IMG/VR virus record: IMGVR_UViG_3300045049_000270
DNA length: 64,000 bases
Source: a virus
Taxonomy: Duplodnaviria; Heunggongvirae; Uroviricota; Caudoviricetes
Direction: 5' to 3' (one strand)
Numbering within the stretch: the stretch's first letter is position 1; every line of letters begins with the position of its first letter. Below the pieces are notes generated by a model, which saw nothing but the letters and a program-made list of their open reading frames with translations, had not been told where the DNA came from and searched no databases. Of the stretch, positions 2,535-35,144 are shown one piece after another. The translations under genes were made by a program, and so were the position numbers.

Positions 2535-4370
2535 ATGAAGAAGAGTCTTATGGCTTCGACAATGATTGCTATTTTGGCAATCTCTTCGCAAGCTTTTGCA
2601 GATTGCACTGGTAATCCGCATGACTGCACAAGTGCAACCCAAACATATGTTGATCAAAGCATTGCAACAGAAACGACCCGAGCAACCAATGCAGAATCTG
2701 GTTTGCAAAGTCAGATCACGACGAATGCTGGTAATATCACTGTTTTGCAAAAACAAGCTGGCGATTTGCAAACGCAGATCAACAACACTAACACCACTGT
2801 CAACGGCCTGGGTCAAGGTCTCGCCAGCACACAAACGCAAGTAAATGCAAATACGGCAGCTATCAATAGCCTACAGACGAATAGTGCTTCTCATCAAGAA
2901 GTGATGAATTCGGCGGCTGCGACATTGTCAGCAGCTAATGCAAATGCGAGCACAGTCGTAGGCGCTGAAACGCAACGGGCACAAGGTGTTGAAGCTGGCT
3001 TGCAGAATCAAATCAACAACAACGCGGCAACCGCTTCATCGATGGTTCAAGGTGAAAATCAGCGAGCAACGACAATTGAAGGAATGTTGCAATCGCAGAT
3101 TGCGGCAAATGCATCGACTGCGGCTGGAGCAACGGCTGCTGAAACCGCTCGCGCACAAACAGCAGAGTCGACGCTGAATGCAAAGGTTAATACTGCGCAA
3201 TCAACTGCAGATAAAGCACTTGGTGCCGCAGGCGCGGCACAGAGCACTGCTAATCAAGCATTGACTGGAGCTGGTGTGGCGATTGGCATCGGTATTGGTA
3301 ATTCGATCGCGATCAACGCAACTGATCAACGTCTTGACCAAACAAATGCTAATGTGGCAAATGTTGCGAAGCAAGTTTCGACGAACACGTCCAATATTGC
3401 TTCGCTGCAACAAAAGAGCGCTACGCATTCGGAAGTTACTCAAGCGATGGGTAATGCGATCGAACAAGCAAATAGCTTCACCATGGGACAGGTTGCTGGT
3501 GAATCGCAACGTGCTCAAGCAGCTGAAGCATCGCTGAGCACGGCAATCGGCATTGAAACAACACGTGCTGAAGGAGCCGAAAACAACCTGCAGTCTCAGA
3601 TCACAACGAATGCTGCTTCTGCAAAAAGTTACACTGACCAGACGGCAGCCAAGACTCTCTCGGCGGCTAACCGACATGCTGATGCGGTTGCAGCAAAAGA
3701 CGCGTCAATCGCATATGGTGCGGCAGTTATGACGTCAAACCAATATACGAATCAAGTTGCAAGTAAGACGTTGGCTGGGGCGAAGACGTACACTGACCAG
3801 CAGGTTGGTGCAGAATCGACTCGTGCGCAGGCTGCTGAACAAACGAATGCAAATGCAATCTCGAATGAAACGCAACGTGCGAAGACTGCTGAAGCTGGTT
3901 TGCAATCGCAAGTGACACAAAATAGTGGTGACATTGCAACGCTTCAACAGCAATCGGCATCCCATGATGAAGTGGCACAAGCGCATGCACAATCCAACGT
4001 TTACACTGATCAGTCGTCGGCAGCGACTTTACAAGCTGCTAACAGTTATACTGATCAATCGGTTGCAAATGGTGTGCAGGCAGCCAACAACTACACGAAT
4101 CAACGCTTTAATCAAGCAGAGAGCGACATTAGCACGCTTCGTCAAGATATGTATGGTGGTGTAGCCAGCGCAATGGCAGTAGCAGGCCTCCCGCAACCGA
4201 TGAGTAATGGCCATTCTATGATGTCGGCAGCAGCGAGCACGTATCATGGTGCTACTGGTTACGCGATCGGCGTATCTACTGCTACTGGCGGTTGGGTAGT
4301 GAAGGGAGCAGTAACCGGTAACAGCCGTGGTGACTTTGGCGCAGTAGTCGGTGCAGGTTATCAATTTTAA
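2535..4370 (+). CDS. trimeric autotransporter adhesin (YadA-like C-terminal anchor, coiled-coil stalk)
   Basis: N-terminal signal peptide (..AFA/D), repeated AETxRAxxAE and AxxYTD stalk motifs, C-terminal GGVASAMA...GAVVGAGYQF beta-barrel anchor; GGAGG SD. Confidence 0.92.
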   Translation: MKKSLMASTMIAILAISSQAFADCTGNPHDCTSATQTYVDQSIATETTRATNAESGLQSQITTNAGNITVLQKQAGDLQTQINNTNTTVNGLGQGLASTQTQVNANTAAINSLQTNSASHQEVMNSAAATLSAANANASTVVGAETQRAQGVEAGLQNQINNNAATASSMVQGENQRATTIEGMLQSQIAANASTAAGATAAETARAQTAESTLNAKVNTAQSTADKALGAAGAAQSTANQALTGAGVAIGIGIGNSIAINATDQRLDQTNANVANVAKQVSTNTSNIASLQQKSATHSEVTQAMGNAIEQANSFTMGQVAGESQRAQAAEASLSTAIGIETTRAEGAENNLQSQITTNAASAKSYTDQTAAKTLSAANRHADAVAAKDASIAYGAAVMTSNQYTNQVASKTLAGAKTYTDQQVGAESTRAQAAEQTNANAISNETQRAKTAEAGLQSQVTQNSGDIATLQQQSASHDEVAQAHAQSNVYTDQSSAATLQAANSYTDQSVANGVQAANNYTNQRFNQAESDISTLRQDMYGGVASAMAVAGLPQPMSNGHSMMSAAASTYHGATGYAIGVSTATGGWVVKGAVTGNSRGDFGAVVGAGYQF

Positions 4371-14715: not shown

Positions 14716-14729
14716 GTTTTGTAGTATAA

Positions 14730-14840
14730 GGATGAGTTCAGCAATTACTGGTCAATCGGGCAAGCGTAGAGTTCGATTCTCTACCTAGGTTGAAAGACCT
14801 AGTCGCCAAGTGGTAAGGCGCCCGACTTAAAAGTTCATCC
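14730..14840 (+). ncRNA. YrlA-type Y RNA (permuted tRNA domain)
   Basis: GGATGAGTTCAGCAA..TTCATCC terminal stem; T arm, loop-closed acceptor stem CTAGGT/ACCTAG, D arm in that order. Confidence 0.8.
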
Positions 14841-15061
14841 TGTTTAAAAGTTTCAAGAAGTGGCAATAAAGTGCTTGACGTAAGGTTGCCATAGCAGTAG
14901 ACTAGAGTTAAGGTAGTTAGGTCTGCACTAGATGTTTGAAGCTAGTGACGAGTGAGAGTTAAAAGACCTAGTGTTTCAGCGCTCAACAAGCTGAGACTTA
15001 GCGCAAAAGTTGCCAGTATTGCTATGCGCTAAATCTGAATATTGGAAGAATTTAAGGTTTT

Positions 15062-15111
15062 GGATGCCTACAGCAATTACCTACACTTGCTATGTGACCA
15101 AAGGTGCATCC
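15062..15111 (+). ncRNA. mini Y-RNA-like stem
   Basis: GGATGCCTACAGCAA..GCATCC. Confidence 0.65.
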
Positions 15112-15122
15112 AGTTAGTTTTA

Positions 15123-15256
15123 GGATCCTTACAGCAATCTATAGGCTAAGGAATCTGGTGTCGCAAGACGTGAAGGTTCGAGTCCTTCTGATCCACCCTT
15201 AAAAGTGGATTATGGCGAAATTGGTAGACGCGCTAGACAATGTGAAAATAGGATCC
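15123..15256 (+). ncRNA. YrlA-type Y RNA (Leu-like permuted tRNA domain)
   Basis: GGATCCTTACAGCAA..GGATCC; variable arm and T arm, closed acceptor TGATCCAC/GTGGATTA, D arm TGGCGAAATTGGTAGACGC. Confidence 0.8.
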
Positions 15257-15281
15257 TGTTGTTTTTGAATTAACCATGTAG

Positions 15282-18764: not shown

Positions 18765-18909
18765 TATTGCATTTCTCTATGGAAGGCGTAAAATGGCATA
18801 CGGTTAATAAACCTTCGTGATTGATTGAAGTTATCTACGTCGTCAATGTGTAGAAAATTTTAACAAAGTTGTTGACTTGTTTGGTAACTCTGTTAGAATA
18901 GATGTTTTA

Positions 18910-19106
18910 GGATTGTTACAGCAAGCCAAAATTACTTAATCCGGCGTTGCTTCATGATCCATGTGCTGGCTTAAATGCTAAGACCGAAAGGTCGTGTGTG
19001 GAGTGCGATGAAGATAGTGTCCATAGAATATGGAATAGTGCTCGTAGAAACGAGATCGACCAAGGAAGATCCTGGCCTTGAATCGATAGTAGGGAGACCA
19101 CAATCC
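18910..19106 (+). ncRNA. large Y-stem-capped structured RNA A
   Basis: GGATTGTTACAGCAA..ACAATCC; internal GATAGTGTCCATAG motif and hairpins. Confidence 0.7.
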
Positions 19107-19147
19107 TGGTGGTTTCAAAGCACTGGCTTTTGGATAGTTAGGTGTTT

Positions 19148-19431
19148 GGATGGGTACAGCAATAAACTTTCTAATATAGAAAGCCGTTGAATGCTTTCAC
19201 CTTTTAGGTGAAAGCTGATGTAACGGATAGTGTCCATAGCGAATATGTGGCGTTGGGCTCGTAGACGAAATGCGCGAGATAGGCACGTAGAATACGTGAT
19301 AGTTTGGTGGGTGTACGCTTGTTGATAAGGTCTTCCGCTGGCATTATGAAATTTTTGTCAGTACGTGAAGGATAAGGCAGCTTGCTATGTAGACCAAACG
19401 ATAAACAAAAAACTGCATGCACAATCCATCC
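19148..19431 (+). ncRNA. large Y-stem-capped structured RNA B
   Basis: GGATGGGTACAGCAA..TCCATCC; same GATAGTGTCCATAG motif and hairpin order. Confidence 0.7.
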
Positions 19432-19460
19432 TGTTTGAAACTCTTAGCAAATTGATTCAA

Positions 19461-19471
19461 TTTGCTAAATA
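19461..19471 (+). promoter_or_regulatory. TTTGCTAAATA motif (possible late promoter)
   Basis: identical 11-mer also at 23643, 23736 and 23878; lies upstream of tRNA-Thr. Confidence 0.5.
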
Positions 19472-19494
19472 GAAATGTAGTTGTAATCAAGTAC

Positions 19495-19568
19495 GCCCTG
19501 TTAGTTTAATGGTAGAACAGTTGACTTGTAATCATCAGACGATAGTTCGATTCTGTCACGGGGCACCA
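19495..19568 (+). tRNA. tRNA-Thr(TGT)
   Basis: cloverleaf, CT-TGT-AA, CCA. Confidence 0.9.
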
Positions 19569-19673
19569 CTGATCAAGTTTTAAAAGCGGCCTAAAAGGCC
19601 GCTTTTTCATTTCCGGCGAACCTAGACTTCCCATTCATATGAATGTATAATGAAGTCTCATATAGGAGAGGAA

Positions 19674-20533: not shown

Positions 20534-22408
20534 ATGGCACTTGACAAATCAGTCATCGACTCCAAGCGAGTCGAACTTGAAAAAGTAAAAAAGCAGCTCA
20601 AAACAGAATTCTTTGGTCTCGACTCAATCATCGACAAGGTGATTGATTCAATGTCGGCCTGGTATATTTTCCCTGAACTTATTACACGTCCAGTCATAGT
20701 TAACCTTTGGGGTATGACTGGTGTTGGCAAGACGCAACTCGTGCGTCGCATTGTTTCCCTGCTCGATTTTAGTGACCGCTTTGTTGAAGTGGTTATGGAT
20801 GGTAGTTCATCTCACGGTAGTTATTTTAGTAACTCACTTTCTTCGATTTTGTCGCAATCAAAAATTGAAGAAGGTAAGCCAGGCATTTTGTTGCTTGATG
20901 AGATTCAACGTTTCCGTACAGTTGATGATAACGGCGGTGACATGAAGGTTGAACGTTATCAAGACGTATGGACGTTGTTGAGTGATGGTAAATTCTCATC
21001 CGATTCATCAGTATTCAATGAGATTGAAATGATGATGGCCAGTCGCATGAACGACGATGATGAAGAAAGCGAAGTTGTGGCAGAAGGTGAAACAAAATCC
21101 AAGAAGCACAAGATCTACATGTGGGAAGCAAACAACATCAAGAAGCTTTTGCGTTTGCCGAATTCAGTTTCCGAGATCATGTCGTGGGATTCAAAAGATG
21201 TGGTAGCTGCATATCATAAAGTTCAAGCAACACGCAAGTCATGGGAAATTGATTATACGAAGTTGATCATCTTCATCTCTGGTAATCTTGACACTGCATT
21301 TGCTGGTGCAACCAGTACGGACGATTCAGACACTGATGCTGACTTCTACCACGAAATCACAAAGAATATTTCAACCAACAAGATCAAGGCAAATCTGTTG
21401 CGTCGCTTCCGCCCAGAGCAAATTGCTCGCATGGGCAATAACCACATCATCTATCCCTCGATGAGCAAAGTGTCATACCAGAAGCTTATCGCAGCAACGT
21501 GCAAGCGTTACACTGATGAGATGACTGCGGTATCAGATATCAAGTTTGACATCGACCAGTCAATACTCGATCAAATTTACGACAATTCAGTTTTCCCAAC
21601 ACAAGGAACACGACCAGTCTTTTCTTCGATTCATAAGATCTTCAGTAATCTGCTCGTCAACCTTACGTTTTGGGCCATTGAAAATGACCACAAAGACGTG
21701 AAGCTAACGATCAATGATGGCTTAGCTTTTGTTAATGCAACAGCAGATGGGCAAACAGCCAAGTTTGCAGTTGAGTTCGAAATGAACGAACGCAAGAAGA
21801 AAACATCGGTTGATTATAAGACGTTGGTTGCGGCACACGAAGCAGGGCACGCGATCACATTTGCATTGTTGAACAAGACATCACCTTTTGAAGTGAAGGT
21901 TAATATTAATTCCTTCAATGGTGGTTACATGCTGCCTCCACCAGACAACGAAGCAGTGACGCGTGAGGGATTGCGAAATGATCTCTGCATTTTGTTGAGT
22001 GGACGGGCTGCTGAAGAAATCGTATTCGGTATTGAAAATACTACTACTGGTGCGCAATCTGATATTGCTAAAGCAACTGAAGGTGCTAGTTTCTATGTGC
22101 GACGTTATGGCTTTACTGACGTTGTTGGGCTGATCGAAACTAGTGCGTCACCCACGATCAATTGGTTGACGATGATCGAAGAAACTGATCCAGCAGTGAA
22201 AGCGTTGATTCAACAACAATATGTTCGTGCTAAGGCCTTGATCGGTGAGCACCTAGACTATTACAAACATATTACAAATGTGTTGATTGAACGGAATTCA
22301 CTCAGTCAAGATGAATTTATCGCTGAATCCCAACCGTTCATTAAACTTGAAAAACAGCAACCTTCGTTTCCATTTACGGAGCGCTGGAAACAGTTTCTAG
22401 CAAAGTGA
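20534..22408 (+). CDS. AAA+ ATPase fused to peptidase M41 (FtsH-type protease domain), soluble
   Basis: GMTGVGKT, LLLDEI; HEAGH zinc motif, GRAAEE, TTGAQSD; no transmembrane segment. Confidence 0.85.
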   Translation: MALDKSVIDSKRVELEKVKKQLKTEFFGLDSIIDKVIDSMSAWYIFPELITRPVIVNLWGMTGVGKTQLVRRIVSLLDFSDRFVEVVMDGSSSHGSYFSNSLSSILSQSKIEEGKPGILLLDEIQRFRTVDDNGGDMKVERYQDVWTLLSDGKFSSDSSVFNEIEMMMASRMNDDDEESEVVAEGETKSKKHKIYMWEANNIKKLLRLPNSVSEIMSWDSKDVVAAYHKVQATRKSWEIDYTKLIIFISGNLDTAFAGATSTDDSDTDADFYHEITKNISTNKIKANLLRRFRPEQIARMGNNHIIYPSMSKVSYQKLIAATCKRYTDEMTAVSDIKFDIDQSILDQIYDNSVFPTQGTRPVFSSIHKIFSNLLVNLTFWAIENDHKDVKLTINDGLAFVNATADGQTAKFAVEFEMNERKKKTSVDYKTLVAAHEAGHAITFALLNKTSPFEVKVNINSFNGGYMLPPPDNEAVTREGLRNDLCILLSGRAAEEIVFGIENTTTGAQSDIAKATEGASFYVRRYGFTDVVGLIETSASPTINWLTMIEETDPAVKALIQQQYVRAKALIGEHLDYYKHITNVLIERNSLSQDEFIAESQPFIKLEKQQPSFPFTERWKQFLAK

Positions 22409-26325: not shown

Positions 26326-26333
26326 CAAGTTTT

Positions 26334-26421
26334 GAAGTGTCCCTGTGAGGTGGCAAGATAGTCCATAGCGCTTGACGTTATGTTGACGCTTGAGATGGAG
26401 AAGGCGCCGACCATCCACTTC
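26334..26421 (+). ncRNA. small structured RNA sharing the GATAGT(GT)CCATAG motif
   Basis: GAAGTG/CACTTC closing stem, TCCAT/ATGGA helix, U-rich tail. Confidence 0.5.
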
Positions 26422-26439
26422 TTTTTGTTTTTTGACTGT

Positions 26440-27152: not shown

Positions 27153-27196
27153 CCTTAAAGAGATATTGATATTTAGTGGTGAGCATTAATGGTTTT

Positions 27197-27245
27197 GGAT
27201 GCCTACAGCAACTTAAATTTTCTTGGTGAAAACGAAAGTGCATCC
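27197..27245 (+). ncRNA. mini Y-RNA-like stem
   Basis: GGATGCCTACAGCAA..GCATCC. Confidence 0.65.
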
Positions 27246-27334
27246 AGTTGTTTTTCAGGGTGAATGATAGACTGGCGTCGTGGAACTCGAGGCTCACCCT
27301 TTTCATGTTTTAGGATGTTTACAGCATCATCAAT

Positions 27335-27409
27335 TCCGGAGTAGCACAGCGGTAGTGCAGCGCACTGTTAATGCGCGGGTCGCTGGTTCGATCCCAGCCT
27401 CCGGAGCCA
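27335..27409 (+). tRNA. tRNA-Asn(GTT)
   Basis: CT-GTT-AA, CCA. Confidence 0.92.
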
Positions 27410-27428
27410 TTTATGTACATCCTGTTAT

Positions 27429-30909: not shown

Positions 30910-30936
30910 AACACATTCATTTTAGACCCAGTTTTT

Positions 30937-30985
30937 GGAAGCCTACAGCAATCACATTCATTTTCCAACATGACCATGTGCTTCC
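30937..30985 (+). ncRNA. mini Y-RNA-like stem
   Basis: GGAAGCCTACAGCAA..GCTTCC. Confidence 0.65.
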
Positions 30986-30995
30986 AGTCAGTTTT

Positions 30996-31056
30996 GGATA
31001 GTTGCAGCAAACTTAAAAACATCAAACCGTTAATTTGACTCGTTAAAAAGCTATCC
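30996..31056 (+). ncRNA. mini Y-RNA-like stem
   Basis: GGATAGTTGCAGCAA..CTATCC. Confidence 0.65.
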
Positions 31057-31067
31057 AGTTTTACAAT

Positions 31068-32006: not shown

Positions 32007-32012
32007 AGTTTT

Positions 32013-32059
32013 GAATGCCTACAGCACTTTAAATCATTGGCATATGAAAAAACGCATCC
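32013..32059 (+). ncRNA. degenerate mini Y-RNA-like stem
   Basis: GAATGCCTACAGCAC..GCATCC. Confidence 0.5.
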
Positions 32060-32079
32060 AGTCAAAGAACAAATACTAC

Positions 32080-35009: not shown

Positions 35010-35021
35010 GTTGTGCTCGTA

Positions 35022-35138
35022 GGTTGATTTCAGCAAATTTATTTTAATCATCTGAGAAATGAAAGGTCCAGGTTCGAACCCTGGCGGAGGAGATGAGCCC
35101 CTCTGTGGTGTAATTGGATAGCACTTAAAATATCAACC
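35022..35138 (+). ncRNA. YrlA-type Y RNA
   Basis: GGTTGATTTCAGCAA..ATCAACC; T arm, closed acceptor CGGAGG/CCTCTG, D arm. Confidence 0.8.
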
Positions 35139-35144
35139 AGTTTT

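Follow-up and report, generated by a model that had tools for sequence, protein, structure and literature searches.

Two paralogous structured RNAs among the tRNA genes of a phage are probable Y-RNA-like partners of a Ro60-like DUF2828 protein

What are the two large RNAs that lie in tandem at positions 18,910–19,431 of IMG/VR virus record IMGVR_UViG_3300045049_000270 (Caudoviricetes), in a gap between long open reading frames (ORFs)? The stretch of DNA analysed, hereafter the window, is 64 kilobases (kb) long and appears to come from a very large phage; it holds 50 tRNA genes, on the plus strand throughout. An earlier note, made from the letters alone, described a tandem pair of paralogous structured RNAs at this site and could assign them to no known family. 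Our analysis agrees on both counts: the pair, which we term units 1 and 2, are genuine, conserved, structured and paralogous RNA genes of a family that is absent from Rfam. To that first reading we add a placement. The units belong to the large pseudoknotted cargo class (type B) of a family of RNAs built on a closing stem and a CAGCAA motif, together called the handle, and elsewhere this class lies upstream of a gene for a Ro60-like DUF2828 protein. Since the family directly precedes the DUF2828 gene in other phages, units 1 and 2 are probably (we would put it at roughly 60%) Y-RNA-like partners of such a Ro60-like protein, produced at this locus as a transcript of their own.

Unit 1, a cut-down type-B handle RNA of 201 nucleotides (nt), occupies positions 18908–19108, and unit 2, a complete one of 288 nt, occupies 19146–19433; both are on the plus strand and were placed by a covariance model (R1) and by folding. 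The intervals proposed before, 18910–19106 and 19148–19431, describe these units with the two outermost base pairs left off. Both units fold better than shuffled sequences, at −57.1 kcal/mol for unit 1 (z −2.56) and −91.5 kcal/mol for unit 2 (z −4.58). Rfam 15 was searched with the whole window at the gathering threshold and with the locus alone at E ≤ 10; tRNA and noise were all that came back, and no family was obtained for the units. Neither the unit pair nor one homologue had a blastn match among 50,697 phage records, and the RNA family was not found in literature searches. When IMG/VR was scanned with a 14-mer, most of the matches were due to chance; only two contigs (L002 and L003) were real, and these share a 24-nt identity with unit 1. 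In both, the RNA has a GGAUGA/UCAUCC closing stem after UUCAGCAA and ends 8 nt 5' of an ORF of 484 amino acids (aa), in which Pfam identified DUF2828 (3.8e-20) and DUF7788/vWA (3.6e-43).

Eight large type-B units of other phages, each lying immediately 5' of a DUF2828+vWA gene, served to build model R1, which includes no sequence from the window. When these eight training sequences were aligned (MAFFT), RNAalifold predicted 30 pairs, of which 21 show compensatory changes, in the same helices as those of a 27-member alignment. R1 matched 30 loci at 47 bits or more, every time on the strand of the DUF2828 gene and 100–370 nt upstream of it. Unit 1 was matched over its full length at 54.7 bits (E 1e-11). 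Unit 2 scored 28.6 bits (E 2.4e-5), or 25.4 bits when filters were switched off, and was aligned through all five helices. The order of elements that had been read as common to the two units is thus recovered with an independent model, and both align to one covarying structure. Covariation, for which a check had been proposed, was observed: among the 27 aligned sequences, which were fitted to R1, 26 of the 30 pairs, in five covarying helices, show compensatory changes. The proportion of paired cells was 96.7%, as against 71.3% in shuffles and approximately 30% with the partners slid; none of 500 shuffles equalled the real alignment.

The structure of the class can be described from the outside inwards. 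The handle is a closing stem (P1) of 7–9 base pairs (bp), whose ends, (U)WGG...CCWG, are conserved and whose inner pairs covary, and after it an unpaired UACAGCAA; the motif, YWCAGCAA in its general form, begins 0–3 nt after the 5' strand of the stem. Both units conform to this description, with TACAGCAA after the terminal stem, and they also share a GAUAGUGUCCAUAG core; the Y-like closing stem reported for them is present in each and is common to at least eight other RNAs of the window. The outer as well as the inner pairs of P1 covary in the family alignment (e.g., UA:13 GC:8 AU:6). P1 is followed by a hairpin that is often GNRA-capped, two or three modules, P4 and P5. A module is made up of AUAGUG and a covarying stem of 4–5 bp, on which the cap, UAGAAUA, does not vary. 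Among the phages 15 distinct module sequences were counted, and these use 12 different stems, while their flanks and seven bases on the loop side are constant. The invariance of the flanking U and A is consistent with UAGAAUA adopting a T-loop. A reading of CCAUAG/UAUGG as a GNRA tetraloop receptor was considered and dropped, because other phages show ordinary stem pairing, with covariation, at these bases. The loop of P5 pairs with the 3' tail to form an H-type pseudoknot of 5–7 bp, which is present in 26 of 26 members from outside the window and is made from 13 different helix sequences. A conserved A-rich strand, AGAAAAUAAAUUAC, lies between P5 and the 3' strand of the pseudoknot, and the latter ends 0–3 nt from the closing stem.

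Unit 1 is the form of this class without the pseudoknot domain. Its closing stem, UAGGAUUGU/ACAAUCCUG, pairs 18908–16 with 19100–08 and is followed by UACAGCAA at 18917–24, a GAAA-capped hairpin (GACC-GAAA-GGUC) at 18982–93, AUAGUG-plus-hairpin modules at 19013–34 and 19035–54, and P4 at 19055–87. A GG-GAGA-CC mini-hairpin at 19092–99 takes the place of P5 and of the pseudoknot, which unit 1 lacks. The cargo domain of unit 1 covers 19013–19099, and that of unit 2 covers 19226–19422. Two oddities were observed within this unit: GGCGUUGCU (18943–51) is complementary to AGCAAGCC of the handle motif and is paired in the minimum-energy fold, and the P4 loop (19069–19075) repeats AUCCUGG, the 3' strand of P1. 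Together, the complementary stretch at 18943–18951 and the AUCCUGG copy could mask the handle of unit 1 in an alternative fold. Homologues have neither the CAGCAA-complementary stretch nor the copy of AUCCUGG in the P4 loop.

Unit 2 is the form with an insertion of approximately 77 nt. It is closed by UUGGAUGG/CCAUCCUG, pairing 19146–53 with 19426–33, and has UACAGCAA at 19155–62. Two 5' hairpins (19167–83 and 19193–215) precede GAUAGUG at 19226–32, and P2 (19233–50), P3 (19258–78) and P4 (19284–98) follow; the AUAGUG-plus-hairpin modules of unit 2 span 19226–50, with a variant loop, and 19279–98. P5 pairs 19302–08 with 19392–99 and carries the insert in its loop, while the H-type pseudoknot joins GUGUA (19311–15) to UGCAC (19418–22) across an A-rich loop at 19400–13. 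The window contains GATAGTGTCCATAG at two places only, 19013 and 19226, in each case on the plus strand; at up to two mismatches 0.29 matches would be expected, and 4 of 100 shuffles reached two. The class tolerates both the loss and the insertion, and units 1 and 2 together bracket the tolerated variation and mark out the core that matters.

The evidence for a protein partner comes from other phages, on which the partner model rests. IMG/VR contains at least 265 stretches that encode relatives of the L002/L003 DUF2828 protein. Of these, 80 loci were fetched, and YWCAGCAA was found in the 600 nt upstream of the DUF2828 gene in 74; the upstream units usually number one to three in tandem, with the form (U)WGGnnnn-N-YWCAGCAA...nnnnCCWG and several distinct interiors. 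The same linkage was tested starting from the RNA, using two scans of IMG/VR with the cargo motifs alone, each match then being subjected to a stem check or to R1. Seventeen contigs with a type-B RNA were recovered and DUF2828 is encoded in all of them. The DUF2828 start is at most about 170 nt downstream and on the same strand in 16 of the 17, and the encoded proteins range down to approximately 51% identity with the first. In the 17th contig (G006, 259 kb), the DUF2828 gene is 3.6 kb downstream of the type-B RNA, and other handle RNAs are found up to 27 kb away within a 28-tRNA array. Another IMG/VR record (L224, IMGVR_UViG_3300045988_078733) has, at 3830–3990, an AUAGUG-UCUAU-AGAAU-AUAGA-AUAG module with a GGUUCUA/UAGAACC closure and without CAGCAA, and tRNA T-arm-like sequences nearby; no DUF2828 was found in this 84-kb fragment. 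Synechococcus phage BUCT-ZZ01 has the usual arrangement, with a type-B-like RNA (L232, 1150–1329) and two short handle RNAs immediately preceding its DUF2828 gene.

The DUF2828 protein resembles Ro60 in its predicted fold. An AlphaFold model with a predicted local distance difference test score (pLDDT) of 63.8 was compared with the PDB using Foldseek, and the top 11 matches were all Ro60 (E 1e-7 to 1e-4, approximately 510 columns), among them Rsr of D. radiodurans, Ro60 of phage phiLo, and the Xenopus and human Ro60 proteins; vWA domains were matched only at E > 0.01. Of 50,697 deposited phage genomes, 702 have a homologue of DUF2828; the hosts of these phages include Escherichia, Salmonella, Listeria, Staphylococcus and Mycobacterium, and some of the homologues are labelled 'RNA-binding protein' in RefSeq. 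A literature search for DUF2828 found no paper on its function. In Pectobacterium phage CBB (NC_041878.1, 100739–104251), the DUF2828 gene, one of those with the RefSeq label 'RNA-binding protein', is two genes downstream of an RNA ligase gene, a neighbourhood that echoes the bacterial Ro60–RtcB neighbourhoods.

Several points weigh against the partnership with a Ro60-like protein. No DUF2828, TROVE or vWA gene was detected in the window by tblastn, by Pfam searches of the 20 largest ORFs or by hhalign. The DUF2828 model is of modest quality at its pLDDT, with template-modelling (TM) scores of 0.33–0.44, and a DUF2828 sequence profile searched against PDB sequences finds no Ro60 and no solved structure; the likeness to Ro60 is therefore one that the fold comparison alone shows and the sequence profile does not. 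The R1 score of unit 2 is modest, and the 27-member alignment, being fitted to R1, leans towards the structure it displays. An unassigned window ORF of 540 aa was considered as a hidden Ro-like protein and was rejected, the hhalign probability being 0.1%.

The close coupling of RNA and gene could also mean that type-B RNAs serve chiefly in cis, as leaders of the DUF2828 mRNA (one example would be an autoregulatory operator through which the bound protein controls its own translation), and that the pair in the window is a displaced copy or a decoy. The position of the type-B RNA on the coding strand, so near the DUF2828 start in 16 of the 17 contigs recovered from the RNA side, is what such a leader would show, and usually the sole separator is a short handle unit that ends 8–19 nt before that start. 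The arrangement of the window locus is different. The gap between the flanking long ORFs extends from 18765 to 19649 (ORF end 18764, next ORF start 19650); it had been put at 700 nt and free of ORFs, and the gap is real and in fact 885 nt long, but short chance ORFs of 40–72 aa, the only ones there, do overlap it. Its elements are, in order, a promoter, unit 1, unit 2, a 12-bp hairpin, tRNA-Thr(UGU), and a GC-rich hairpin with a U run. The promoter TTGACT..TAGAAT of the earlier note was found at 18872–18899 on the plus strand; it is sigma-70-like (TTGACT-16-TAGAAT, 10 of 12 matches), has the TG of an extended −10 element, and is expected to start transcription a few bases 5' of unit 1. The hairpin between unit 2 and the tRNA (19443–19468, plus strand) is a perfect 12-bp palindrome, UUAGCAAAUUGA/UCAAUUUGCUAA, without a U tail, and is a possible site of RNase III-type processing. 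The tRNA-Thr(UGU) gene, at 19495–19568 on the plus strand, is probably co-transcribed with units 1 and 2. At 19582–19607, also on the plus strand, an intrinsic-terminator-like hairpin (GCGGCC-UAAAA-GGCCGC, then UUUUU) was read from the sequence; it was not listed by the scanner that gave the promoter and was seen in the Rfam-search alignment of the locus.

A stand-alone transcription unit of this kind, with its own promoter, ending in a tRNA and a terminator and preceding no protein gene, argues against a purely cis-acting leader role. The 3.6-kb distance between RNA and gene in G006 and the scatter of ten handle RNAs among the tRNAs of the window speak against it as well, and we consider it unlikely that type-B RNAs act mainly as leaders. 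By the handle alone, R1 picks up another eight RNAs in the window; each is on the plus strand, and together with units 1 and 2 the handle RNAs are on that strand in 10 of 10 cases. Those outside the pair span 14729–35140, none with type-B cargo, and were placed at 14729–14841, 15060–15113, 15121–15258, 27195–27247, 27311–27424, 30935–30987, 30994–31058, 32011–32061 and 35020–35140, each on the plus strand. A shortened core had also been reported at about 26357. The sequence GATAGTCCATAG is indeed present there, but as a third copy of the core it was rejected, since R1 gave no match at E ≤ 10 and the spacer fold had a z of 0.27 against shuffles. In this spacer (26326–26439, between tRNA-Phe and tRNA-Asn), GATAGTCCATAG lies within a UCCAU...AUGGA hairpin inside a GAAGUG/CACUUC outer stem, without CAGCAA.

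An alternative of a different kind is that the RNAs act without a Ro60-like protein, as decoys or scaffolds for host RNases, tRNA-modifying enzymes or anticodon nucleases, and that their linkage to DUF2828 is simply the synteny of tRNA clusters. The absence of a DUF2828 gene from the window is in favour of this proposal. Likewise, tRNA gene clusters contain or adjoin the RNA arrays and DUF2828 genes in 15 of 15 loci checked, and T-arm-like sequences occur in sibling handle RNAs of other phages. However, the linkage persists across DUF2828 proteins that are only about 51% identical, and a distance of 100–200 nt is tighter than cluster synteny. A relative (G001) has a 14-tRNA array and neither handle RNAs nor DUF2828. 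This fragment is one of three from related phages in which both are missing, and their joint absence agrees, weakly, with the co-occurrence of RNA and protein. A role independent of the protein is improbable in our judgement.

With respect to individual tRNAs, tRNA-Thr(UGU) was observed within approximately 250 nt upstream of the RNA array in seven loci (L120, L124, L126, L128, L132–L134), namely the six with the most window-like type-B RNAs, plus L128. In the window it is immediately downstream of the pair, and by eye it is only loosely like the tRNA of L002 (L120 is the same contig). In relatives reached by way of the FtsH-like protease (L200–L202), the homologous RNA pair, handle RNA and DUF2828 were all absent from the fragments examined. 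Shortly downstream of the RNA locus, at 20534–22408, the window encodes a soluble AAA+/M41 FtsH-like protease. A neighbouring 267-aa protein has no relatives in IMG/VR. A 611-aa ORF at 2535–4370 has a C-terminal YadA-like membrane-anchor domain (E 2.8e-10), which is unusual for a phage.

Lastly, DNA-level elements resembling miniature inverted-repeat transposable elements, which the terminal inverted repeats superficially recall, and self-cleaving ribozymes, for which the earlier note had suggested a cleavage test, are both highly improbable: the stems covary between copies rather than being identical, the internal helices and the pseudoknot covary too, the copies are co-oriented with transcription (the plus strand in all ten cases here, the gene's strand elsewhere), no ribozyme family matched at E ≤ 10, and nothing points to self-cleavage of units 1 and 2.

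If units 1 and 2 are indeed Y-RNA-like partners of a Ro60-like protein, the following sequence of events can be proposed. The two units would be transcribed with tRNA-Thr from their own promoter, and the pair would be excised by host tRNA-processing and double-strand RNases. The handle would then dock on the Ro60-like ring as the stem of a Y RNA does on Ro60, and the cargo would offer its repeated UAGAAUA hairpins and pseudoknot to a putative second partner, which would be tethered or sequestered. Unit 1 would be a reduced copy and unit 2 an expanded one, arising by duplication within the phage lineage. A more far-reaching version, which we put forward only tentatively, is that the handle, i.e., the terminal stem plus the unpaired UUACAGCAA, is the docking site of an ancient DUF2828 ring family of phages, bacteria, archaea and eukaryotes, and the same element as is found in the Class I RNAs of social amoebae. 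The phage might then carry at least ten interchangeable adaptor RNAs, of which the two type-B RNAs would be the largest, recruiting a specific host or phage factor to the ring through the UAGAAUA hairpins and the pseudoknot.

Should the partnership hold, DUF2828, a very common phage protein, would gain a testable job as an RNA-guided Ro-like particle, and current annotation would be missing a second class of functional RNA genes in phage tRNA clusters. The locus itself shows that a large type-B RNA can stand as a gene in its own right, under a promoter of its own, beyond the role of an mRNA leader.

Three known systems invite comparison. Bacteriophage T4 produces the species 1 and 2 RNAs, small stable non-tRNA RNAs that are co-transcribed and processed with the phage tRNAs. 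Units 1 and 2 are like them by description only, as small stable RNAs in phage tRNA clusters, and we know of no CAGCAA handle in the T4 species.

A likeness of form is seen with the Class I RNAs of dictyostelids (RF01414), which are 42–65 nt long and encoded by clustered genes (Kjellin et al., 2021; PMC7919456). Like the handle RNAs, they are closed by a short stem between their two ends, carry a conserved unpaired motif after the 5' strand of that stem, and vary in their interior. The 11-nt Class I motif has near-invariant T, C, C, A and A at positions 3, 6, 9, 10 and 11 (PMC7919456), and these stated positions (..T..C..CAA) are compatible with UUACAGCAA. The known direct binder of Class I RNAs is the RRM protein Rnp1A, and the authors found no Class I RNAs outside Dictyostelia (PMC7919456). 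Units 1 and 2 differ from them in length, at 201 and 288 nt, and RF01414 gave no match at E ≤ 10 to the pair or to two short handle RNAs.

The closest parallel is with Ro60 and its Y RNAs. In bacteria, Ro60 (Rsr/TROVE2) is accompanied by YrlA/YrlB (Rfam RF02553; Chen et al., 2014; PMC4201824), and the Ro60 of Thermus phage phiLo by Yrl1/Yrl2 (PMC12135203). The system described here has its own components: the protein family is DUF2828/DUF7788 and not TROVE, which was absent from the 20 largest ORFs of the window, DUF2828 being what adjoins the RNAs elsewhere. The type-B cargo is not tRNA-like, and neither the Y RNA nor the YrlA model (RF00019, RF02553) matched, whether at gathering score or with the cut-off relaxed to E ≤ 10. 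The Y RNAs of canonical phage Ro60 have a bulged helix with a CGAA motif (PMC12135203), and the CAGCAA handle, a stem with an unpaired YWCAGCAA, is therefore a different element. The architecture of the two systems is nevertheless alike in the following respects: (i) the RNAs are modular, with a terminal 5'–3' stem that bears a conserved protein-binding element (putative here) and a variable effector module; (ii) several RNA genes stand in tandem just upstream of the protein gene; (iii) the protein is a helical-repeat ring joined to a vWA domain, as the Foldseek comparison of the model suggests for DUF2828; and (iv) the setting is one of tRNA and RNA-repair genes, as in phage CBB, where DUF2828 is encoded near an RNA ligase.
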